Shown: piece by piece, positions 3,755 to 34,202 of the stretch | Layout: every line of letters begins with the position of its first letter | Position numbering within the stretch: the first letter of the stretch is position 1 | Assembly: GCA_019358935.1 (NCBI GenBank) | Contig: JAHHIK010000002.1 | Coordinates: 96,001-160,000, forward strand | DNA length: 64,000 bases | Direction of reading: 5' to 3' | From: Tolypothrix carrinoi HA7290-LM1 | GTDB lineage: Bacteria; Cyanobacteriota; Cyanobacteriia; Cyanobacteriales; Nostocaceae | Program-made: the position numbers and the translations under genes | Notes under the pieces: model-generated | Told to the model about the DNA's origin: nothing | The model's input: the letters and a program-made list of their open reading frames with translations, nothing else | Database searches by the model: none

Positions 3755-4731
3755 TGTACATCTCCAGGGTGCAGGTAGTTTGTTGAGAAGTTTTTCAAAT
3801 TATAGTGCTGTTGCCATGTCTGCCAACCCTGAATTCGTCCCCGTAGAGATGCCAGCCACTTCTTAGATGCCAATTTTCCTTCACTGGGTAGCAATCGCAA
3901 CCACTGTACAAAACCGAGCGCTTCTCGCGTACCGATTAATGTTGCCCAAACTACAAATACAATACGTTGCACTGATGAAAAGTATTCTAGTAAAGCTAAA
4001 GTTTCATTATGTACGGCATTGCTCCAAGCGATGTCATTAAAATTATCTCGCTGGTCTTCATCAAAACGCTGTGCGGGATAGTGATCCACTGCGACCAACG
4101 GATCGAAAATAATTTTCCACCCCGCTCGTCTCAACGGCAGGGTGAATGCCAATTCAAAATGTACTTGGGCACCAGTACCTAGCATCCGCTCATCATAGCG
4201 CACTTTTTTCAGGGCGCAAAAGCGAAAACTCATATTTACTCCCTTGAGTACGTCTACCTCGCGGGCTGATCCGACACCCAAGTGATGATTGCCAATCACC
4301 CGTCCAAACCACTGCACCCGACCGACACAGAAGCGATCGCCTACTTCTTTTATTTGAGTACCTATGTACTGCCAGTCGCGTCCACCCACAGCACCGATGC
4401 TGCTATCTGACAAAAAGTAAGCTTCGATACGTTGCAGCCAATCAGCGTGTGGTGCAGCATCGTCATCGGTAGTGGCAACGATATCTGCCTGCGCGACATC
4501 CAAACCTGCATTCATCGCTGCTACTACTCCCGGAACTTTCACGGTTACGGTGCGTAGTGGCAGCGAATCAAGGTTAAAGGTTTGCAAAAATGTCCAAGTT
4601 TCCGCATCAATATCACGCACCGTCACCAATACTTCATCTGCTTGCCGAGTTTGCTTTTTCAGCGCTTCCAGGCAACGCATCAGGTCTAGAGGTCGGCGAT
4701 AGGTGGGTATGAGAACGGTGATACTGGTCAT
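3751..4731 (-). CDS. Glycosyltransferase family 2
   Basis: N-terminal VLIPTYRR and TDDD (DxD) motif. Confidence 0.9.
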   Translation of the reverse strand: MTSITVLIPTYRRPLDLMRCLEALKKQTRQADEVLVTVRDIDAETWTFLQTFNLDSLPLRTVTVKVPGVVAAMNAGLDVAQADIVATTDDDAAPHADWLQRIEAYFLSDSSIGAVGGRDWQYIGTQIKEVGDRFCVGRVQWFGRVIGNHHLGVGSAREVDVLKGVNMSFRFCALKKVRYDERMLGTGAQVHFELAFTLPLRRAGWKIIFDPLVAVDHYPAQRFDEDQRDNFNDIAWSNAVHNETLALLEYFSSVQRIVFVVWATLIGTREALGFVQWLRLLPSEGKLASKKWLASLRGRIQGWQTWQQHYNLKNFSTNYLHPGDVQ

Positions 4732-22214: not shown

Positions 22215-22430
22215 AGGGAATGGGGAATGGGTAATTGGGAATGGGTAATTGGGAATAGGTAATTGAGAATGGGTAATTGGGAAAATTCCTACTCCCTACT
22301 CCCCAACGCCAGTCGCCTCAAGCCGGGAGACCCGTCCACGGCGCTGGCTCCTCCCCACTCCCTACTACGCCACTTGCTTCAAGCCGGGGAACCCGTCCAA
22401 CGCAGTGGCTCCCCTACTCCCTACTCCCTT
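22215..22430. repeat. STRR tracts with two tandem small dispersed repeat elements
   Basis: GGGAAT/GGTAATT arrays and two ACGCCA...CAAGCCGGG...CCCGTCCA...TGGCTCC units. Confidence 0.8.
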
Positions 22431-23145
22431 CCACTACTTCGCTCTTTTCGGGTTCTTTTGATAATTGTGGGGTAGTGCGCTTAGAAAAGCCCCAGGCAAA
22501 AACGAGGGCGATCGCACCAATCATCGCCCATTCTGGCGGAACAAAGCTATCGTTGACGACTTTCAGGAGCAAGCGCAAGCCTACCAAAGCTACAGTGATA
22601 TAGCCTGCGTCTTCTAAATAGACATACTCATCCAACCACTTGATAAACAAACCCGCCATATATCGCAGGGTGATAATCCCAATAGTTGCCCCTGTGAGTA
22701 CCAACCACTTTTCTTGAGAAACTGCGATCGCTGTTGTCACACTATCCAAAGAAAATGCTAAATCCGTGAAAGCAATCACCGGGATCGCTTGCAATAGTGA
22801 GTTAAAGCGGGGACCGTGATGCTGGTTATCTTCGCCTTCTTCTGAGGTAAAATGTTGGAATACCAGCCATAGCAGGTAAGCAGCACCCAATACGTTAAAT
22901 TGCCAAAATTGTTGCACCCAAGTTGCGGTGAGAATTAGGGTGATGCGTAGCACGTAGGCAACGACTAAGCCGACATTTAGTGCTTTACGTTCGAGTTCTT
23001 TGTCTTCGAGTCCTTGGGCGATCGCAGCGAGGGCGATCGCATTGTCAGCAGATAGTACAGCCTCTAGTAAAATCAGAACGAGTAAGACTAGAGGTGCTTC
23101 GACGCTGAAGTGAAAGTGAAGATAATCAAAAATTTGGTCTAACAT
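22414..23145 (-). CDS. TerC-family membrane protein
   Basis: LEAVLSADNA and DLAFSLDSV motifs. Confidence 0.9.
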   Translation of the reverse strand: MLDQIFDYLHFHFSVEAPLVLLVLILLEAVLSADNAIALAAIAQGLEDKELERKALNVGLVVAYVLRITLILTATWVQQFWQFNVLGAAYLLWLVFQHFTSEEGEDNQHHGPRFNSLLQAIPVIAFTDLAFSLDSVTTAIAVSQEKWLVLTGATIGIITLRYMAGLFIKWLDEYVYLEDAGYITVALVGLRLLLKVVNDSFVPPEWAMIGAIALVFAWGFSKRTTPQLSKEPEKSEVVEGSRE

Positions 23146-24533: not shown

Positions 24534-25205
24534 TCACGGTTTTTTCTCTAAGAAAGTGGAATTGGGATGAGATTTTTTTGCTAATTCATCGCTACGAAAT
24601 TGAAAGCGGAAAACTACCTTGCGATCGCCTGGGTTATCGCGAGTCTTATCAGCTTCTATTTCTCCACGACCAGCGGCTAATACTTTTTGGCTTAAAGGCG
24701 CTTTTGTGGTAAAATTAATGTCAGAAAAAATGAACTTGGCAACTGATGAAGACCGCAACAAGCTAAGTTGTAAGTTAGTTTGGTAGTCTCCTTCAGAACT
24801 GGTGTGACCTTCGATAATTACGCGGCTAATTTCTTTCTCGAATTCGGGTTTTGAGAAAATCACTCCACTGTAAACGGGAATAAAGCTACGAAGAAAAGCT
24901 TTACCTTCGGGTTTCAGTTCGGTACTTCCCTGAGCAAAAAGAATTGATTCTTGGATACTTACATCCCCGGTTTCTGGGTTGACTTTGACGTTAATGTTGT
25001 TACTTTTCATTTCTCCAACAACATTGCCAATTACCACTCTTTTTGGTGCATCTTTCTCTGCTAGCTGAAGTAGTGCAGTAATAAAAAGTAGCATAAAAAA
25101 CATCAGTAAACCTGACATCAAATCGCCAATAGATAAATAGATACTAGAATCATCATCCTCAGCAATTTCTGATTCAAAAAAATCGCCTTTTGTGAAATCA
25201 TTCAT
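24534..25205 (-). CDS. zorB: Zorya ZorB-like MotB/OmpA-domain protein
   Basis: TM helix with conserved Asp (SIGDLMSGLLMFF); OmpA_C motifs ILFAQGS, IEGHTSSEG and NLQLSLLRS; overlaps zorA. Confidence 0.8.
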   Translation of the reverse strand: MNDFTKGDFFESEIAEDDDSSIYLSIGDLMSGLLMFFMLLFITALLQLAEKDAPKRVVIGNVVGEMKSNNINVKVNPETGDVSIQESILFAQGSTELKPEGKAFLRSFIPVYSGVIFSKPEFEKEISRVIIEGHTSSEGDYQTNLQLSLLRSSSVAKFIFSDINFTTKAPLSQKVLAAGRGEIEADKTRDNPGDRKVVFRFQFRSDELAKKSHPNSTFLEKKP

Positions 25206-27126
25206 GATGGTTATTCCCGTTACCTATGTCATTGTTGTTTTTTACAGCTATTAGGACATTAGCTGTATGTAGTAAACCTCCGCAAACCCCAGCCATAGCA
25301 GTATCGGCTTGTTTGAAGAAGCTTTCTTGTAAGTCAACAGTTCGCTTCATAGAACTTTCAAGGTGACTATGCCAAGCTTGAAGACTATGGTCAAACTTTG
25401 CATTCAAATTCCTGTATGAATTGTCCACAATCTGCACTTGCTGTCCAATACCAGTAGCAAGTTTTTCGAGTTGTATCAGTCGTTGTGCATCGTTTAACCC
25501 AGCCGCACTAACTAAGTTATTTATTTGTTGGACAGTTCCTTGAATTTTATTCATACTTTGGTCTACTTCTTGAGTCAACTCACTGCGTCTTTTAGCTTCA
25601 TCTTGAAAAACGGTATCCAAATTAGTCACTACCGCAGCTAAACCATCGCGTTGTTTGCCTAGTGTCCCTTCCAGTAAGTTATTTTGTTGTGTAAAGAATG
25701 CCTGTAGATTCGCTTGATATTGTTCTCGGAATTGTGTTAAATCCTCTTGCACCGTTTGACGAGTTGCTGTGAGTGTGTGGTCGATATTTCCTAATGTGGC
25801 AATAAGATTCTCTTGACTACGATTCATCAGTTGACAAGCTTGATTACCGACTGTTTCCAGAGTGTTAGTCTGCTGCTCGAAGGCTGTATTTGCTTGTGCG
25901 AGAATGTGGATAATTCCAGTCCGAGTAGCTTGAAGCATTTGCTTTTCTACTTCTGCTCGTTTTTGCAACGCTGTTTCAAGTTCCTCTCTAATTCCTCGGA
26001 ATGTATCAGCCGCATTTTCTGCACTTGCTTCAAAAGCACTTTGTTGAACTGTCATTCCTTGAATACTTTGCTCGATAGCTCGATTAATATCGTGAGCGGT
26101 TTGTTCTAAAACACCTTTTGTATCTGTTTGAAATTGATTCAAAGTTTGTTTGAGATTGTTAGCGAAGTCTTGGAGGCTAACTAAAGTCTCTTTTTGAAAG
26201 TTTTGAATTGTGACGATGGAACTTGCCAAATCTTTGTGGAGAATTAACACAGCTTCGGAAGCTTGCTGAGTTAATTCTGCACTTTTATCTAAGCGATCGC
26301 CTATCGGTTCAAATACCTCAATTCGCAAATTTTTAATAAGTTCTTCTAAAACTCTTTGTCCCTGGTTTTCTTGGAGTTCTCTGAGCTTTTGCTGCTCTTG
26401 TAATATTCCTCGCAGTGCTGGTAAAATAACTGACTGCATCTGCTGTCCTACAGCTTCTCCAATAGCTTCAGCACTCAAGTTTATCCCTGTGAACTTGTCT
26501 GCTACAAGGTTAAGAACTTGTGCTACTTCATAGTTAGCGTTGTCTGCTGTTTGTATGGCGATCGCTTTCAACTTTTGTCTTAAATCATCACGTCGTTTCT
26601 GACGTAGCGAATCACATATAAACAAAATTATCGTGAACAAGCTACCAGAACCAAGTCCCATCAAGGAAGTAGAAAAAGCTGTTTTCATTCCCACCAATAA
26701 TTCCTTACTGGAATTCATTAGCTGCTGGGAACTTGTTGTATCTAAATTGATTCCTTGTAACCCCTGTTGAATACCATAAAAGGTTCCCAAAACACCAATT
26801 GCAGTACACAAGGTAGTCACGAAACGCAGGGAACTACGAGGTATTGGACGCGCTAAAACAACTGGATACTTTATAAGTATGAATTTGCCATTTTGAATTT
26901 GTAGATGTTCGTCTTTCCACTGATGAAGCTTTAAATTATCCTGTTTTTGACTTTTTTTCGGATTTTTCAAACTCTGAATTGCAGCTGCTGTTTCTCCGCA
27001 TTCTGAATACCAATACTGCCATAATGTATAAAGCTCAACAATAATTGCCACAAATAATACAATGGCAGTTGCCCAATGAAAAGGCTCGCTATCCCAAACT
27101 ATGCCCCAAATTTGTGCTAAATTCAC
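25198..27126 (-). CDS. zorA: Zorya ZorA-like MotA/ExbB protein with a long coiled-coil tail
   Basis: GVLGTFYGI and GMKTAFSTSLMG MotA/TolQ/ExbB motifs, followed by about 450 aa of Q/E/L-rich helical sequence. Confidence 0.8.
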   Translation of the reverse strand: MNLAQIWGIVWDSEPFHWATAIVLFVAIIVELYTLWQYWYSECGETAAAIQSLKNPKKSQKQDNLKLHQWKDEHLQIQNGKFILIKYPVVLARPIPRSSLRFVTTLCTAIGVLGTFYGIQQGLQGINLDTTSSQQLMNSSKELLVGMKTAFSTSLMGLGSGSLFTIILFICDSLRQKRRDDLRQKLKAIAIQTADNANYEVAQVLNLVADKFTGINLSAEAIGEAVGQQMQSVILPALRGILQEQQKLRELQENQGQRVLEELIKNLRIEVFEPIGDRLDKSAELTQQASEAVLILHKDLASSIVTIQNFQKETLVSLQDFANNLKQTLNQFQTDTKGVLEQTAHDINRAIEQSIQGMTVQQSAFEASAENAADTFRGIREELETALQKRAEVEKQMLQATRTGIIHILAQANTAFEQQTNTLETVGNQACQLMNRSQENLIATLGNIDHTLTATRQTVQEDLTQFREQYQANLQAFFTQQNNLLEGTLGKQRDGLAAVVTNLDTVFQDEAKRRSELTQEVDQSMNKIQGTVQQINNLVSAAGLNDAQRLIQLEKLATGIGQQVQIVDNSYRNLNAKFDHSLQAWHSHLESSMKRTVDLQESFFKQADTAMAGVCGGLLHTANVLIAVKNNNDIGNGNNHHE

Positions 27127-28570: not shown

Positions 28571-29323
28571 TTAAAAATATTTTAAATACTTTCCGCCAGA
28601 AAGATAAGCGCTGTTAAATAGCGCCACGTTAACTAATTGGTTGATAAAATTAGCTTCTGCCGGATTGTAACTAAAAAATAGTCCTCTTTCTATTTCCCAC
28701 AAGACAAGTGTATTTTTCCAATATTGATACTTGTGCTGATTCAATTCTTCTGAGACGCTGGTAACTTGAATACAAAGTGGTTTCTGTTGACTGTTGCTGA
28801 TAATTAAATCTGTTGCCATAGAAAGGTCGGCAATATAACGCTGCCAAAAACTTCCCTCTCGACGGACAATATCTTTAGCTATTAATTTAATAATATCATT
28901 ATCGGCTCGATTAAACTCCCCCGCCATTAATTTTTGTCGCCAAATACCAAACTTGGGGTCTGTTTCATTTAGCCATTTCGGAAAAAGATACTGATACCAA
29001 TATCTCTCAGTAGGTGTCATTTGCGCGAACTTTGCTTGTTGTTCTTCTTCAGTAGGTAAAGATTGAATCACTAACCAAACAGTAGAATCGGCAATCACTT
29101 CCAAGAGAAAAGCAAGGACAAATGGTTTCGCAGTCAGCGAACCAACTTTTATATCTTTTACCCAACGATTAATTTCATCTAATCTTCTCGCTAAATTGGG
29201 GTCTAGCGAGGAGGCTTGCTCAATGAGAAACTTTAGCTTCTCCTTAATCTCTTTTGCTTGCAAACGATGCCCTAATTTCAGTAACAAAAGCTCTATTATA
29301 AATTTATACCGATTTGTTGCCAA
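28571..29323 (-). CDS. Hypothetical protein, possible nuclease-like fold
   Basis: 250-aa ORF with TTG start; DLSMATDLII...LCIQVT segment. Confidence 0.6.
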   Translation of the reverse strand: MATNRYKFIIELLLLKLGHRLQAKEIKEKLKFLIEQASSLDPNLARRLDEINRWVKDIKVGSLTAKPFVLAFLLEVIADSTVWLVIQSLPTEEEQQAKFAQMTPTERYWYQYLFPKWLNETDPKFGIWRQKLMAGEFNRADNDIIKLIAKDIVRREGSFWQRYIADLSMATDLIISNSQQKPLCIQVTSVSEELNQHKYQYWKNTLVLWEIERGLFFSYNPAEANFINQLVNVALFNSAYLSGGKYLKYF

Positions 29324-29424
29324 AAAGATTTCCGTTTAAAAAAAATATATTTTAATGTTCTTTATTGTGAGTTGCGCTTTATTTACCCTGCGCCGAGCGC
29401 ACGCTACGCGTTCAGGCACCGAAG

Positions 29425-29635
29425 CCCTTGTCATTACCAACATATTTCAAAACCCTCGCTTTTGCCGCTATCTCGCCTTAGAATTTATTCTAAGGCTAAT
29501 AGCACAAGTCCATTAAAATGGACTGAAATCTTTATTTAGTCCTCTTTTAGAGGACTTTAGCTGTTAGACAACGGTTTATAACCGTTGGCGGGATAAGGGT
29601 TTTACGAGATAAATAAATGTTGCTAATGACAAGGG
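29425..29635. mobile_element. MITE with 19-bp terminal inverted repeats and a target-site duplication
   Basis: CCCTTGTCATTACCAACAT...ATGTTGCTAATGACAAGGG (one mismatch); flanking direct repeat CACCGAAG at 29417-29424 and 29636-29643. Confidence 0.85.
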
Positions 29636-29770
29636 CACCGAAGCCGCTGGCTCTACGAACAGAGCTTACCTGCGTGGGCTAATTAGACGCATCTTCATAT
29701 AGAAAAGGTATTAATACAGTATTTCATTAATCTGATCGCTTTGTTAAATTTGGCAATACCCTGCAATGCC

Positions 29771-29948
29771 AATGCATTCCGATGCAATCTTAATGCATCC
29801 CGATACAATGTTAATGCATCCCGATGCAATCTTAATGCATCCCGATACAATGTTAATGCATCCCGATGCAATCTTAATGCATCCCGATGCAATGTTAATG
29901 CATCCCGATGCAATCTTAATGCATCCCGATGCAATCTTAATGCATCCC
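29771..29948. repeat. 21-bp tandem repeat, 8 full units plus a partial unit
   Basis: Consensus AATGCATCCCGAT[G/A]CAAT[C/G]TT, no spacers. Confidence 0.95.
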
Positions 29949-30261
29949 CTTGCATTTAAAAACGCTGCGCTTTTACGCAAAACTTTACTTAGTTATGGCG
30001 GATGTAAACTGACTGACCTGGCAATTTGGGCGCATTTTCTGGTAAAATGACGTAAGGATGAGCCTCAGAACCTCGACAATCAGCCTTAATATCATTAGTT
30101 ATCCTAGAAACCTTGTAAAACTCTCTGCGCCTGGAGCAGCTCTGGGTGAGCTTTAATAATAATACTTCAATCGGGCTTGGATATGAACTTTCAACTATGA
30201 GCCTTATAAACTCATCAAATGCGCGGTTTACCAACTTTGAATTTGGCATTTCGCGTAGCGG

Positions 30262-32364
30262 CTACCCCCATAAAAATCTTATAAGCCTTCGCAGCCAAGA
30301 GTTGCTAGCACTTATCTTAGCCCGCAAATTTGCCAAATTTTTACGGACAGTAACCGTATTTGGATGATTAACCCCCAAAACCCGCTCACACAGTTCTAAA
30401 GCTTGGATAAACAGCGGTTCGGCTTCACTGTAGCGTCCTTGGGAATCGTAGAGATTAGCCAAGTTGTTCAAGCTGGTGGCAACATCGGGATGTTCTTCTC
30501 CCAGCAGGCGTTTTCGCAGTTCTAAAGCTTGGATATGCAGCGGTTCGGCATCACTGTAGCGTCCTTGGGAATAGTAGAGTCCTGCCAAGTTGTTCAAGCT
30601 GGTGGCAACATCGGGATGTTCTTCTCCCAGCAGGCGTTTTCGCAGTGCTAAAGCTTGGATATGCAGCGGTTCGGCTTCACTGTAGCGTCCTTGGGAATAG
30701 TAGAGTCCTGCCAAGTTGTTCAAGCTCATGGCAACATGGGGATGTTCTTCTCCCAGCAGGGGTTTAGAAAGTGCTAAAGCTTGGATAAACAGCGGTTCGG
30801 CTTCACTGTAGCGTCCTTGGGAATTGTAGAGATTAGCCAAGTTGTTCAAGCGAATGGCTACATCGGGATGTTCTTCTCCCAGCAGGCGTTTAGAAAGTGC
30901 TAAAGCTTGGATATACAGCGGTTCGGCTTCAGTGTAGCGTCCTTGGGAATTGTACAGATAAGCCAAGTTGTTCAAGCTGGTGGCTACATGGGGATGTTCT
31001 TCTCCCAGACTGGCTCTGACTACTTCTACACACTGCTTGAACCAAGGTTCGGCGATCGCATACAAACCCTGTCCATGATAGAATCTGCCCAAACCGACGA
31101 AAACCGAAATTAAATCTTCATCACTCACCGCATCAGTGAGATTTTGTGCCACTTCTGTTAAATGGGGTATGGCATCTTGCACTGACTTGATCTTCTCAAG
31201 GGTGGGTGTGTCGGGTATTTGCTGGGCAACTTTTATAAATACAGCCGCAAAATTTCTTCGGAAGTCATCTGTGTTTTCTAATGCTGCTAACTTTGCCTTG
31301 AGAAATTCCCGAATTAAAGGATGTATTTTGTAGCAAGCTTGTTTCTCTTGCAGGCTTTCAATTAAATAACGCTTGTAAAGTTGCTTTTTGGCTTCGTTAA
31401 TGTCTGATGTACAATTAAGCAAATCAGTTGCAGATTCTACGAATTTCCAAGAAATAACATCTGGGGCAAATAAACTCAAATACGCTCCCACACGCTGGGT
31501 TATCGGCTTGAGTTGTTGCCAGCTTAATTCAAATGCGGCTTTCACCCCTTGCGTTGAAGGGTTTATTGCTTCATCTTCCAGTCGCTGGGCTTTCAGCCTT
31601 TGTAACATCTCTGCTAGAGATAAATCTGGATCTTCGTCTAAATACTGCCGTACTAATTGCAACCCCAAGGGCAGATATCCCAACCATTGGCACAATTTTT
31701 CTGCATCAACTCGTTTTTTACCTTTTAATGGCAGCAATTGCAAAGCTTTATCTGGTGGTAGTACATTCAGAGGTAATTCCTGCACATTGTCGAGGTTTCG
31801 CAAGCGGGTTGTCAGCAATACGCGGAAGCGGTTAGTTGTTGGTAGTAGCGTTTGACAACTTTCCCAATTTTCATCAGTCACATCATCTAATACTACCAAC
31901 ACCAGCTTTTCTGCTGGTTGCCAGTTTTGCCAACACCAGGCTACCTGTTCCTGAAGAGTCAGCAGTCTTTCTCCCTGTTTTTGCGGTACTTCCTGCATGT
32001 ATAACTGGACAATCTCTAATATATCCGCTGCCAAATTCGATTTCTTCGCATTTAACCAGCAAATACCCCCAGGATAATCTTTTTCATGTCCTAGAGCATA
32101 TTGCGTCGCGAGTTCGGTTTTGCCGATTCCACCCATACCCGCTATTGCCGAAATTGCGACAGTACCAGGTTGCTGCAATTTTTCATGCAGCGTGGTGAGT
32201 TCCTGTTCTCGTCCAACAAAGTTAGCGATGCCTCGATTAGGAATATATTTTATGGGATTTGGTGGAGAAGTTCGTTGGGGTTGCCCAAAATTGATATTTG
32301 GGTTATGGATGTTGACACTTCCGCCCTTAATATTTACACCTTGCCAATTTTCGTTGTTAGTCAT
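30262..32364 (-). CDS. NLR-like STAND protein: short N-terminal motif + NB-ARC + TPR sensor
   Basis: FVGREQEL, Walker A GMGGIGKT, Walker B VLDDV, GYLPLGL, IHPLIR; five 42-aa TPR units (HPxVAxSLNNLAxLYxSQGRY). Confidence 0.92.
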   Translation of the reverse strand: MTNNENWQGVNIKGGSVNIHNPNINFGQPQRTSPPNPIKYIPNRGIANFVGREQELTTLHEKLQQPGTVAISAIAGMGGIGKTELATQYALGHEKDYPGGICWLNAKKSNLAADILEIVQLYMQEVPQKQGERLLTLQEQVAWCWQNWQPAEKLVLVVLDDVTDENWESCQTLLPTTNRFRVLLTTRLRNLDNVQELPLNVLPPDKALQLLPLKGKKRVDAEKLCQWLGYLPLGLQLVRQYLDEDPDLSLAEMLQRLKAQRLEDEAINPSTQGVKAAFELSWQQLKPITQRVGAYLSLFAPDVISWKFVESATDLLNCTSDINEAKKQLYKRYLIESLQEKQACYKIHPLIREFLKAKLAALENTDDFRRNFAAVFIKVAQQIPDTPTLEKIKSVQDAIPHLTEVAQNLTDAVSDEDLISVFVGLGRFYHGQGLYAIAEPWFKQCVEVVRASLGEEHPHVATSLNNLAYLYNSQGRYTEAEPLYIQALALSKRLLGEEHPDVAIRLNNLANLYNSQGRYSEAEPLFIQALALSKPLLGEEHPHVAMSLNNLAGLYYSQGRYSEAEPLHIQALALRKRLLGEEHPDVATSLNNLAGLYYSQGRYSDAEPLHIQALELRKRLLGEEHPDVATSLNNLANLYDSQGRYSEAEPLFIQALELCERVLGVNHPNTVTVRKNLANLRAKISASNSWLRRLIRFLWG

Positions 32365-32479
32365 GAGTGTGTTGCTGAGTCAAAATATGAATTAGCCTCA
32401 CGCAAAGGCGCAAAGGCGCAAAGAGTAAGAGTTTCAGATATATTTCATATCCGCGCTTCAGCAATGCCAGGATAGGTAT

Positions 32480-32914
32480 TTATTTGCTGCGAAAGTCTAA
32501 ATTAGGTTTATTAATGGTGTTATTTCCGCCCTTAATATTTATCCCTTGCCAATTTTCGTTAATGATTCCTGGGCGTTGTGCCTGCACCATCTGTGTTAAA
32601 TCTTGAATAGCCTTCTCCAGTTGAGGATTTGTCTTTGCGGCTTGGTTTACATCATTTCCCAAAGCTTCCACTGCCGCTTTTATCTCTGGATCTGCTTGCG
32701 CTGCTTTCTCTATCTCTAAAACAGCGACACCAATATCTTCTCGCCCTGCTGCTGGTAAAGCTGCTAAAGTCGCTACAGTATCAGGCGATTTAGCTTGTAG
32801 CTTTTGTTTGGCATAATCAAGCCCTGCATCAAAAGCCTTTTCTATACCCCAATCAGCAAATTTGCCGCCTAAATATAGTCCTAACGCGATCGCTCCAGCG
32901 GTTAACGGTTCCAT
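32480..32914 (-). CDS. Small Bell-like helical protein whose C-terminal motif matches the NLR N-terminus
   Basis: Hydrophobic N-terminal helix MEPLTAGAIALGLYLGGKF, helical core, and C-terminal NENWQGINIKGGNNTINKPNLDF. Confidence 0.75.
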   Translation of the reverse strand: MEPLTAGAIALGLYLGGKFADWGIEKAFDAGLDYAKQKLQAKSPDTVATLAALPAAGREDIGVAVLEIEKAAQADPEIKAAVEALGNDVNQAAKTNPQLEKAIQDLTQMVQAQRPGIINENWQGINIKGGNNTINKPNLDFRSK

Positions 32915-32945
32915 AAGCTACTTTCGTAAAGCGCAATTACACAGG

Positions 32946-32976
32946 ATACTACCAGCTTGACTGCGGTACTTCCGGA
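32946..32976 (-). promoter_or_regulatory. DIF1-like promoter candidate
   Basis: Minus strand reads TCCGGA-N18-GTAGTAT, ending 31 nt upstream of the ATG at 32914. Confidence 0.45.
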
Positions 32977-33000
32977 AATGTTTATATTAAGTTTATATTA

Positions 33001-33094
33001 CAGAACTTACGCAAAAACTCTCTGCAACTCTTATTCCTTTGTGTCCTTCGTGCCTTCGCGGTTCGTTATTCCGTGAAAGAGTGCGTAAGTCTTA
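33001..33094. mobile_element. 94-bp MITE with a 9-bp target-site duplication
   Basis: CAGAACTTACGCA...TGCGTAAGTCTTA imperfect inverted ends; TTTATATTA at 32992-33000 and 33095-33103. Confidence 0.7.
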
Positions 33095-33194
33095 TTTATA
33101 TTACAGCGATTTTCACCTAAATGAACCACATTATTTTTATCTCACGCAAAGGCGCAAAGGCGCAAAGGAAGAAAGAAAGGAAGAAAAGTGTGGT

Positions 33195-33887
33195 CTAAAT
33201 ACATGAAAATTGCTGTAAACCAGAGCGATCGCCTATTCCTGACAACTGAAAATCTGGTAGTTGGCAAATGGCTTTGAGAACTTGCAATAATTCAATTGCA
33301 TCTGGAGATTCATTCAAGTTCAGTAATGGCATTAACTGATAAGTTGGCGGTGTACTTTGTCTAAGATAAACATATTGATAACGCAGTCCATTCGTTATCA
33401 ATCCCCATACAGATTCTTGCTGTTCTAAACTTTTATAAGCGTAGGTAAGCAGTTGTGGTAAACCCTGAAGCACGTCAGCTAAACTATTTTTCGTCTCAAT
33501 TACTAACACCCAAAAAGGCGGCATAGTAATTGCCTGAGCGTTGTTGATTGCTAAAATATCCATGCGTCCTTTAATATTTGTATCCTCGTCTTCGATGGAA
33601 ATAGCAATTACATCCTCCATCGTCAAGCGAATCAGCACATCATAAAATCCAGCCAATCGCATTAATGGGGCAAGTGTCAAAAATTTCACTAATCCTTCCG
33701 AAACTTTTCCCGCTGCTAGGTAACGTTGAAAGTCATTGCTAATCCGCAATAAATCTTGCTGTTCAAACTCACTCAGAGGTTGTAAAGTTAAGTAGTCTGT
33801 AAATGAGCCAATTGGCTGTTCTTCCAGCTTCAGCAAGCGATGAACGTCGTTTAAGAATAGGTTACTAGCTTCTACGGTGAGTGTCAT
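33195..33887 (-). CDS. HSDR_N-like restriction-endonuclease-fold protein
   Basis: GRMDIL...VIETKN...QGLPQLLTYA...GLITNG (PD-(D/E)xK, QxxxY, TNG). Confidence 0.8.
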   Translation of the reverse strand: MTLTVEASNLFLNDVHRLLKLEEQPIGSFTDYLTLQPLSEFEQQDLLRISNDFQRYLAAGKVSEGLVKFLTLAPLMRLAGFYDVLIRLTMEDVIAISIEDEDTNIKGRMDILAINNAQAITMPPFWVLVIETKNSLADVLQGLPQLLTYAYKSLEQQESVWGLITNGLRYQYVYLRQSTPPTYQLMPLLNLNESPDAIELLQVLKAICQLPDFQLSGIGDRSGLQQFSCI

Positions 33888-33976
33888 AGGTGGCGATAAG
33901 TTGATTTGTACTAATTCTCATCTTGCCGCAATTTCCACCCGATACAGGCTATGAAAGCGAATGCGTCGTACTAAGT

Positions 33977-34097
33977 CAGGACTTACGCACGAATAATTGA
34001 ATAACGTAGACGCGCAAGCGGCTTGCCGAAGGCTACCGCAGAGTACACAGAGATAACAGAGGAATAAGAGTTTGAGAGAGTTTTTGTGTAAGTCCTA
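33977..34097. mobile_element. MITE of the same end family as 33001-33094
   Basis: CAGGACTTACGCA...TGTGTAAGTCCTA. Confidence 0.6.
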
Positions 34098-34202
34098 TAA
34101 GTAACCTTGCAATTTCCGCTTATCTTTAGGAAAATCAAAACACTTTTAGTAAATCTGCGTACAGAATAGTTTGCAGTAACAATATTAATTAGCGATCGCA
34201 TT

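Follow-up and report, generated by a model that had tools for sequence, protein, structure and literature searches.

A BASS7-family Bell/NLR gene pair in Tolypothrix carrinoi and relatives interrupted by a conserved in-frame UGA

The window considered here is the whole stretch of 64,000 nucleotides that was analysed, positions 96,001 to 160,000 of contig JAHHIK010000002.1 of the cyanobacterium Tolypothrix carrinoi HA7290-LM1 (assembly GCA_019358935.1). Our subject within it is a pair of co-oriented genes on the reverse strand (Table 1), of which the upstream one encodes a 144-residue protein assigned below to the Bell type and the downstream one, 115 nucleotides further on, a 700-residue NOD-like receptor (NLR) with an NB-ARC NTPase domain and TPR repeats. 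The small protein ends in ...GIINENWQGINIKGGNNTINKPNLDFRSK and the NLR starts with MTNNENWQGVNIKGGSVNIHNPNINF, and when the two full-length proteins are aligned locally, the best match joins precisely these termini, residues 119-141 of the former to residues 4-26 of the latter, with 15 of 23 residues identical and a BLOSUM62 score of 94. Among 2000 shuffles of the whole small protein none reached this score (mean 34.0, maximum 64), and none did so when its 29 C-terminal residues were shuffled 5000 times and set against the first 40 residues of the NLR (mean 24.9, maximum 58). At the nucleotide level 55 of the 69 motif-coding bases are identical, with just two mismatches among the first 37, and the same codon is used at 12 of the 15 identical residues; the window contains the 15-mer TTGCCAATTTTCGTT exactly twice, at 32341 in one motif-coding block and at 32546 in the other. 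An initial annotation, made from the letters of the window, had pointed to both the shared terminal motif and the shared DNA block, and the counts given here bear it out on both. At the protein level the two copies have drifted apart in their second half with its N/I/F pattern retained, and the tail of the small protein carries a single motif copy.

The same annotation had proposed a profile search as a check on the motif. With a profile built from 59 distinct Bell-side motifs of homologues, only two matches below E 0.01 were recovered among the 174,295 six-frame segments of the genome to which the window belongs, namely the C-terminus of the small protein (3.1e-10, partly by construction) and the N-terminus of the NLR (1.2e-5), the next match having an E-value of 0.32.

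Ten families of such motifs, termed BASS, have been defined by matching the C-termini of Bell proteins with the N-termini of NLRs encoded nearby, and BASS7 to BASS10 are described as specific to cyanobacteria (bioRxiv 10.1101/2020.01.06.895854). The C12 strings of supplement 1 of PMC8086366, whose README states 'C12 == BASS7', carry ENW[QKH]GINIKGG..., and two of them match homologues of the window protein exactly: the 29 residues that end C12_s015 are identical to the Bell tail of locus L018, and the 27 that end C12_s003 to that of L050. On this comparison, made by reading the C12 strings and with our own profile and not with the hidden Markov models of the authors, the motif is BASS7, a named and published family; the initial suggestion that it might be new does not hold. 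The window pair is almost certainly a BASS7 Bell/NLR pair, and it is a further member of a known system and not a new system. In an alignment of 22 BASS7 Bell proteins the segment E120-G130 and F141 are invariant. Among the 115 homologues of the small protein, 75 end in (N)ENW[QK]GINIKGG..T....(T/P)(F/L).F, and the others bear unrelated G/N/Q/I-rich tails on the same N-terminal domain, which shows modularity. A literal search for the motif in paper texts gave chance matches only, and a literature search on 'BASS7' returned no paper beyond those cited here for the family.

The RHIM of RIPK1/RIPK3 is, like BASS3, a short N/Q/G/I/V-rich hetero-amyloid cell-death motif, and its core has the form (I/V)Q(I/V)G. 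The window motif resembles it in composition, and to this extent the description 'RHIM-like' in the initial annotation is apt, but the relationship that it implies falls away: neither protein gave a RHIM Pfam hit at E<=1, the core is absent from both motifs, and the RHIM-related bacterial family is BASS3 (bioRxiv 10.1101/2020.01.06.895854).

Of 373 candidates, 115 are homologous to the 144-residue protein at E<=1e-3, nearly all of them from heterocyst-forming cyanobacteria; none of the 115 carries a Pfam domain, and the 144-residue protein itself gave nothing above threshold. With the motif removed, its residues 1-114 match RCJ33357.1 of Nostoc punctiforme NIES-2108 with an E-value of 2e-7 and 37% identity. 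RCJ33357.1, which is the product of our locus L033, is the 'Nosto' Bell domain in the legend to Fig. 1C of Dyrka et al. 2020 (bioRxiv 10.1101/2020.01.06.895854), where Bell is described as a helical domain of about 100 residues whose N-terminal helix is hydrophobic and whose second or third residue is acidic. The start of the window protein fits this description, as MEPLT, with E2, is followed by a hydrophobic stretch that forms helix 1 (N-terminus MEPLTAGAIALGLYLGG); a 'MEPIS'-type N-terminus has been tied to cell killing in the Bab/Agp preprint (bioRxiv 10.1101/2024.11.07.622273). The AlphaFold2 (AF2) model, derived from 46 sequences and with a mean predicted local distance difference test score (pLDDT) of 68, is all-helical over residues 3-113 (helices 3-15, 18-22, 29-42, 44-51, 58-74, 76-95 and 97-113), and residues 115-138, with pLDDT <50 in this monomer model, are predicted to be a disordered tail. 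The domain match, the helicity, the hydrophobic N-terminus and the acidic residue at position 2 are all found in the protein which, judged from its sequence, is a Bell protein. The initial annotation had wondered about a helix bundle of the HeLo kind; the helical character is upheld by the AF2 model, and no HeLo Pfam hit was obtained. A Foldseek search of the model against the PDB gave no match at E<=1e-3, the best VIA-align wide result had a non-specific Z of 4.5, and no PDB sequence was matched below E 0.049 in a profile search; because these searches returned no usable match, the Bell fold is neither tied to nor set apart from HeLo, MLKL and Babybell.

In the NLR, Pfam finds nothing N-terminal to residue 53, in agreement with the earlier remark that no effector domain stands ahead of the NB-ARC, and the second BASS7 copy is the sole N-terminal feature. 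The P-loop is intact, a Walker B-like LVVLDDV is present, and G76, M77, G78, G79, G81, K82 and T83 are invariant in an alignment with 22 other NLR N-termini. The sensor region is recognized by the Pfam models TPR_12 (E 8.1e-95) and TPR_10 (E 8.1e-91) in six stretches each, and its coding DNA contains a tandem array of a 126-nucleotide unit at 30388-31008 (4.9 copies, 91% matches; Tandem Repeats Finder), whose high conservation among repeats would permit rapid reshuffling of the sensor. In a comparison with catalogued antiphage STAND systems (Avs, bNACHT), PADLOC matched the NLR only by a generic TPR model (E 6.6e-20) and two weak hits and did not match the Bell protein, though PADLOC v2 may hold no Bell/BASS models; NCBIfam and PADLOC together added nothing specific for either protein.

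The mark of published Bell/NLR pairs is a Bell C-terminal motif of about 25 residues with a second copy at the head of an NB-ARC or NACHT protein whose gene lies within 5 kb and is usually collinear (bioRxiv 10.1101/2020.01.06.895854). Here, the motifs lie at residues 119-141 and 4-26 of the products of co-oriented genes 115 nucleotides apart, and the NB-ARC is detected with an E-value of 6.7e-16. The initial reading of the layout, namely an effector with a C-terminal motif beside an NLR with the same motif at its N-terminus, after the logic of Bell/BASS pairs and HET-S, is confirmed by the match to RCJ33357.1 and the shared motif. To place the pair among its relatives, one genome per species was scanned with a BASS7-only Bell alignment, which gave 55 loci, or 56 with the window. 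In 24 of the 56 the motif is present on both genes, with the NLR immediately downstream and provided with its own ATG and P-loop (gaps of -4 to 359 nucleotides); a further 22 show a one-frame layout with a single motif and an in-frame stop, to which we return below. The remainder comprises two loci with broken NLR frames (L022, L024), five with no P-loop within 900 nucleotides, two of them ending at a contig end, and three with no intact Bell frame. Decayed BASS7 loci are seen in L022, L024 and L050 (Crocosphaera watsonii WH 8501), where the N-terminal motif lies in an open reading frame (ORF) of 30-52 residues severed from the NB-ARC frame, or no P-loop follows downstream.

The 24 two-motif loci, 23 of them distinct, span many genera with divergent DNA, and they settle a concern raised in the initial annotation, that the motif pair might be a one-off duplication. 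Across the 23 distinct pairs the cognate motifs are more alike than non-cognate ones (identity 0.67 vs 0.61 over 23 residues), the more so in the variable half of the motif (0.49 vs 0.37), and none of 5000 re-pairings reached the cognate identities, a degree of support that is overstated because the loci are related. A recent, functionless local duplication or gene conversion as the source of the similarity has in its favour the two differences in the first 37 bases and the same codon at 12 of the 15 identical residues; against the recurrence of the pair in 24 of 56 loci, the retention of the N/I/F pattern in a second half that has diverged in protein, and the prior publication of the family, we give it next to no weight. 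Chance and one-off duplication are both ruled out as the origin of the shared motif by the shuffles (0/2000) and this co-conservation.

The spacer between the two genes holds one copy of a dispersed 23-mer, CGCAAAGGCGCAAAGGCGCAAAG, which flanks the Bell gene on both sides and has 15 copies on 14 contigs of the genome; this is possibly a small repeat of a dispersed or mobile kind, whose presence would account for the unusual length of the spacer. The stretch 33025-33180, around the upstream copy, has a weak long-hairpin score with an Rfam miRNA-precursor model (E 0.085, far below gathering), and no Rfam model exceeded its gathering score over 29300-34200. A consensus scan found no terminator-like site on the reverse strand of the spacer, and the terminator-like hairpin past the NLR stop (Table 1) may mark the end of the transcription unit.

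The closest parallels are the BASS7 pairs of cyanobacteria (bioRxiv 10.1101/2020.01.06.895854; PMC8086366, supplement 1, C12), which have in common with the window pair the Bell domain, the motif ENW[QK]GINIKGG...N.F.F, the NB-ARC/TPR partner, the gene order, the orientation and the phylum. The window pair, which is not necessarily within the 2020 BASS7 set, differs in its 115-nucleotide spacer with a dispersed repeat, where most published pairs overlap or abut, and in its TAA stop. In HET-S/NWD2 of Podospora anserina, the fungal HRAM case, an NLR with an N-terminal motif likewise adjoins a membrane-targeting executioner with the matching C-terminal motif, and signalling is by templating as we propose for the window; however, the HET-S effector has two pseudo-repeats in place of one motif copy, the motif sequences are unrelated, the sensor is of the NACHT/WD and not the NB-ARC/TPR type, and the host is a fungus and not a bacterium. 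With no HeLo or Hell Pfam hit and a single motif copy on the Bell tail, membership of the HET-S/HeLo group was rejected. The Bab/Agp pair of Escherichia coli (BASS11) also combines a small helical Bell-related executioner bearing a C-terminal motif with an adjacent sensor bearing an N-terminal copy, but its sensor Agp has the architecture TPR-GreA/B-C-PIN and is not an NLR, its motif family is different, and its 'Babybell' domain is about 80 residues long against the approximately 113 of the window Bell (bioRxiv 10.1101/2024.11.07.622273).

By analogy with these systems we propose that the two genes form a module for regulated cell death, of the amyloid-signalling type published for Bell/NLR pairs, and consider its full mechanism, as follows, to be likely. 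The TPR array would sense a cue, probably phage- or stress-derived, upon which oligomerization of the NB-ARC would gather several N-terminal BASS7 copies into a cross-beta fold; this fold would template the same structure in the BASS7 tails of Bell proteins, and refolding of the tails would free Bell helix 1 for insertion into the membrane, killing or arresting the cell in abortive infection or another form of altruistic death. Prion behaviour, fibrils and conversion of the Bell side by the NLR side have been reported for BASS1 and BASS3 (bioRxiv 10.1101/2020.01.06.895854), amyloid fibrils and prion behaviour likewise for BASS11, and Bab/Agp, the BASS11 pair, acts against phages by abortive infection (Ibarlosa et al. 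2024, bioRxiv 10.1101/2024.11.07.622273). Amyloid templating coupled to a membrane helix is in our view the best-supported interpretation. Several points weigh against it. The spacer exceeds that of most published pairs, 57% of which have their genes <=10 bp apart (bioRxiv 10.1101/2020.01.06.895854), and contains a dispersed repeat, so that co-transcription is an assumption. The motif tests reported in the available part of that preprint concern BASS1 and BASS3, and amyloid formation by BASS7 itself is not among them. The Bell model is of middling confidence (pLDDT 68) and lacks a significant structural match, so that pore formation is putative. Lastly, the far-side flank of the pair consists of housekeeping genes such as that for acetyl-CoA synthetase, and therefore there is no large defence island.

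The housekeeping genes on this flank also bear on the question of what the death of the cell might be for. The same parts and the same amyloid relay might serve cell death linked to development or kin, in a cyanobacterium that is filamentous and multicellular, and not defence against phages, which would suit the near-confinement of Bell, NLRs and paired BASS motifs to multicellular bacteria (bioRxiv 10.1101/2020.01.06.895854) and the fact that the PADLOC defence models match the NLR only through generic TPR. We regard such a role as possible though rather unlikely, as Bab/Agp, the sole bacterial amyloid-motif pair with a tested role, is antiphage (bioRxiv 10.1101/2024.11.07.622273), and ZorAB-like and PD-(D/E)xK-like genes adjoin the window pair. 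It might further be held that the shared motif is an ordinary docking tag, making a soluble strand-strand or heterodimer contact and no self-propagating amyloid, since the amyloid data found concern sister motifs and not BASS7, and a short motif with a central GG would also suit a simple beta-hairpin. In its composition, rich in N, Q, G, I and V, and its length of about 25 residues the motif is, however, like the proven prion-forming motifs (bioRxiv 10.1101/2020.01.06.895854), it is disordered in the monomer model, and the same Bell domain is joined to several unrelated tails, as expected of exchangeable self-templating modules; a docking tag of this kind appears to us quite improbable. We hence retain the templating mechanism for the window pair, and turn to those of its relatives in which both halves are found in one reading frame.

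In the one-frame loci the Bell ORF stops right after a single BASS7 motif and the NB-ARC/TPR part continues in the same frame past the stop, with no second motif and no ATG ahead of the P-loop; the junction recurs in a further locus, L047, where the Bell frame ahead of it is broken. All 23 Nostoc BASS7 loci with this junction have TGA as the stop, with CTA next. The stops of the 24 two-gene pairs are TAA in 12, TAG in two and TGA in ten, the last being the pairs with a -4 gene overlap, from which an overlap of stop and start as ATGA follows. Wider sampling with a read-through query covered 127 Nostoc genomes and 201 genomes from 68 genera of the family of the window, Nostocaceae. Among the 150 matches listed for Nostoc, 112 span the junction, all with TGA there at identities down to 53%, and four of these carry further stops; the only two matches among those listed that pass the junction position free of a stop (G004:C59 and G112:C80) are NLRs with unrelated N-termini. 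Among the 150 matches listed for the family, 72 have the junction TGA and none TAA or TAG, at identities down to 43%, and five other genomes of the genus of the window are included. Of 20 divergent loci 19 were resolved, every one with TGA and 17 with C as the next base; at least five different C-terminal motifs stand ahead of the stop in these loci, and it is followed by the conserved peptide L(Q/E)S(P/S)ERER.KLNPP.

In bacteria, termination at UGA is weak when the next base is C. The linkers of the Nostoc loci measure 72, 75, 78 and 84 nucleotides, all multiples of three, and from the TGA to the invariant FVGR, 10 of 24 loci lack any start candidate in frame, be it ATG, GTG or TTG; in a strict scan of the genome of the window for FVGR plus P-loop starts three were found, all with ATG. 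Two long relatives, P0139 (1108 residues) and P0140 (897 residues, from an NCBI record marked partial), have tryptophan at the very position of the TGA. Synonymous differences per synonymous site (pS) are far fewer in the first 14 codons past the TGA than in the surroundings of the P-loop (0.21 vs 0.67), which points to a nucleotide-level signal or to a recombination junction. The conserved in-frame TGA between Bell-BASS and NLR suggests programmed stop-codon readthrough, which would probably insert tryptophan; the two partners, and the proportion between them, would then be laid down by a single gene. On balance we favour a scheme in which termination at the UGA yields an abundant Bell-BASS executioner and rare readthrough a Bell-BASS-NLR sensor, with the window pair as the split form of this arrangement. 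The two motif-coding blocks of the window share a codon register, and a deletion between them would be expected to fuse the genes in frame.

There are also observations that speak against readthrough. One of the two tryptophan forms, P0140, comes from a partial gene, and in P0139 the tryptophan may be an artefact of the code table used when the gene was called. A TTG that might serve as a start is conserved in 21 of 23 Nostoc loci. The ratio of nonsynonymous to synonymous differences (pN/pS) in the linker was 0.48-0.65, 0.58-1.40 and 0.90 in three tests, and with values of 0.5-1.4 translation of the linker is not shown by the codon test. Downstream of the TGA no significant RNA structure was detected in 23 loci (mean z -0.31), and at the junction Rfam gave no match and no selenocysteine insertion sequence (SECIS) element. 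Selenocysteine at the UGA is unlikely: SelB did not score above the cut-off in any of four genomes, and the 67 tRNAs of the genome of the window include no tRNA(UCA).

The one-frame UGA layout is apparently unpublished. The terms 'readthrough', 'stop codon' and 'in-frame' are absent from the preprint text (bioRxiv 10.1101/2020.01.06.895854; the journal version and the supplements lie outside this check), and a literature search on readthrough together with Bell, BASS, NB-ARC, STAND or cyanobacteria gave nothing relevant. According to the available part of that preprint the 2020 screen sought motifs on both genes, and one-frame loci would therefore not count as pairs.

The Bell-BASS7 module also occurs fused to other parts, in P0139, P0141, P0142 and P0143. 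P0139 runs from Bell through a BASS7-like motif, the tryptophan and NB-ARC to a PF12770 region; in P0142 Bell-BASS7 comes after an N-terminal region that gives a PF12770 hit, and P0143 is a PF07819-hit protein that ends in a partial Bell and a BASS7-like tail. Elsewhere in the genome, outside the window, ARAGORN reports a tRNA with anticodon CUA, labelled Pyl (G000:C91:28540-28613), and a cluster of 23 tRNA genes (G000:C183:6577-9684) includes one call with a four-base anticodon (aaag) and a second tRNA-Trp(CCA); any bearing of this extra tRNA-Trp on the decoding of UGA is pure speculation.

In the neighbourhood of the pair, ZorA1-like and ZorB1-like genes and a PD-(D/E)xK-like gene lie within 6 kb. 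ZorC and ZorD are apparently missing, since no ORF of >=110 residues is found between the ZorB-like gene and a TerC-family gene (22414-23145); the remaining neighbours are housekeeping genes, e.g. for acetyl-CoA synthetase. The gene order acs, PD-(D/E)xK-like gene, Bell, NLR and 250-residue ORF is also found in Tolypothrix sp. VBCCA 56010 (L005). Between the NLR and the next gene, at 29771-29948, lies a tandem repeat of a 21-nucleotide unit (8.5 copies, 92% matches), and the open frames on both of its strands are probably not genes.

Table 1. Features of the Bell/NLR pair, its surroundings and the one-frame relatives (positions are those of the window unless a locus or contig is named)
Feature	Position	Strand	Remarks
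ZorB1-like gene	24534-25205	-	E 2.3e-72
ZorA1-like gene	25198-27126	-	E 4.7e-235
Three unannotated ORFs of 114, 141 and 250 aa	27153-29323		between ZorA and NLR
Terminator-like hairpin and T-run	29965..29980	-	consensus scan only; ~280 nt past NLR stop
NLR gene: BASS7 motif, linker, NB-ARC, TPR	30262..32364	-	700 aa
TPR sensor region, ~residues 401-682	30319..31164	-	Pfam
NB-ARC NTPase domain, residues 53-222	31699..32208	-	Pfam PF00931, E 6.7e-16
P-loop GMGGIGKT, residues 76-83	32116-32139	-	sequence
NLR-side BASS7 motif, residues 4-26 (NENWQGVNIKGGSVNIHNPNINF)	32287..32355	-	alignment; profile E 1.2e-5
115-nt spacer between Bell and NLR genes	32365..32479	.	holds one 23-mer copy
Dispersed 23-mer CGCAAAGGCGCAAAGGCGCAAAG in spacer	32401-32423		also 33145-33167, upstream of Bell gene
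Bell-domain effector gene	32480..32914	-	144 aa, stop TAA; ORF list, homologues
Bell-side BASS7 motif, residues 119-141 (NENWQGINIKGGNNTINKPNLDF)	32492..32560	-	alignment, profile
Bell helical domain, residues 1-113	32576..32914	-	AF2 model, Bell description
PD-(D/E)xK-like gene, 230 aa	33195-33887	-	PADLOC model E 5.6e-7; directly upstream of Bell gene
One-frame loci	L029, L031-L049, L051-L053		junction near locus position 4376
Further one-frame loci	L060, L061, L065, L066, L071-L090
One-frame locus in the genome of the window	G000:C154:297-926	-	locus L003; short contig, possibly truncated

The motif that had been described as unnamed already has a name, and what the window adds is a clean BASS7 pair in a Tolypothrix/Hassallia-like genome, beside Zorya-like genes. 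In itself this pair is of modest value, and the larger point is the in-frame UGA layout of its relatives, in which a single frame interrupted by a strictly conserved UGA is common, both with BASS7 and with no fewer than four other motif families borne by this Bell domain. If this UGA is read through, it would represent a rare case of programmed stop-codon readthrough in bacteria and a new way to couple an immune sensor to its executioner.

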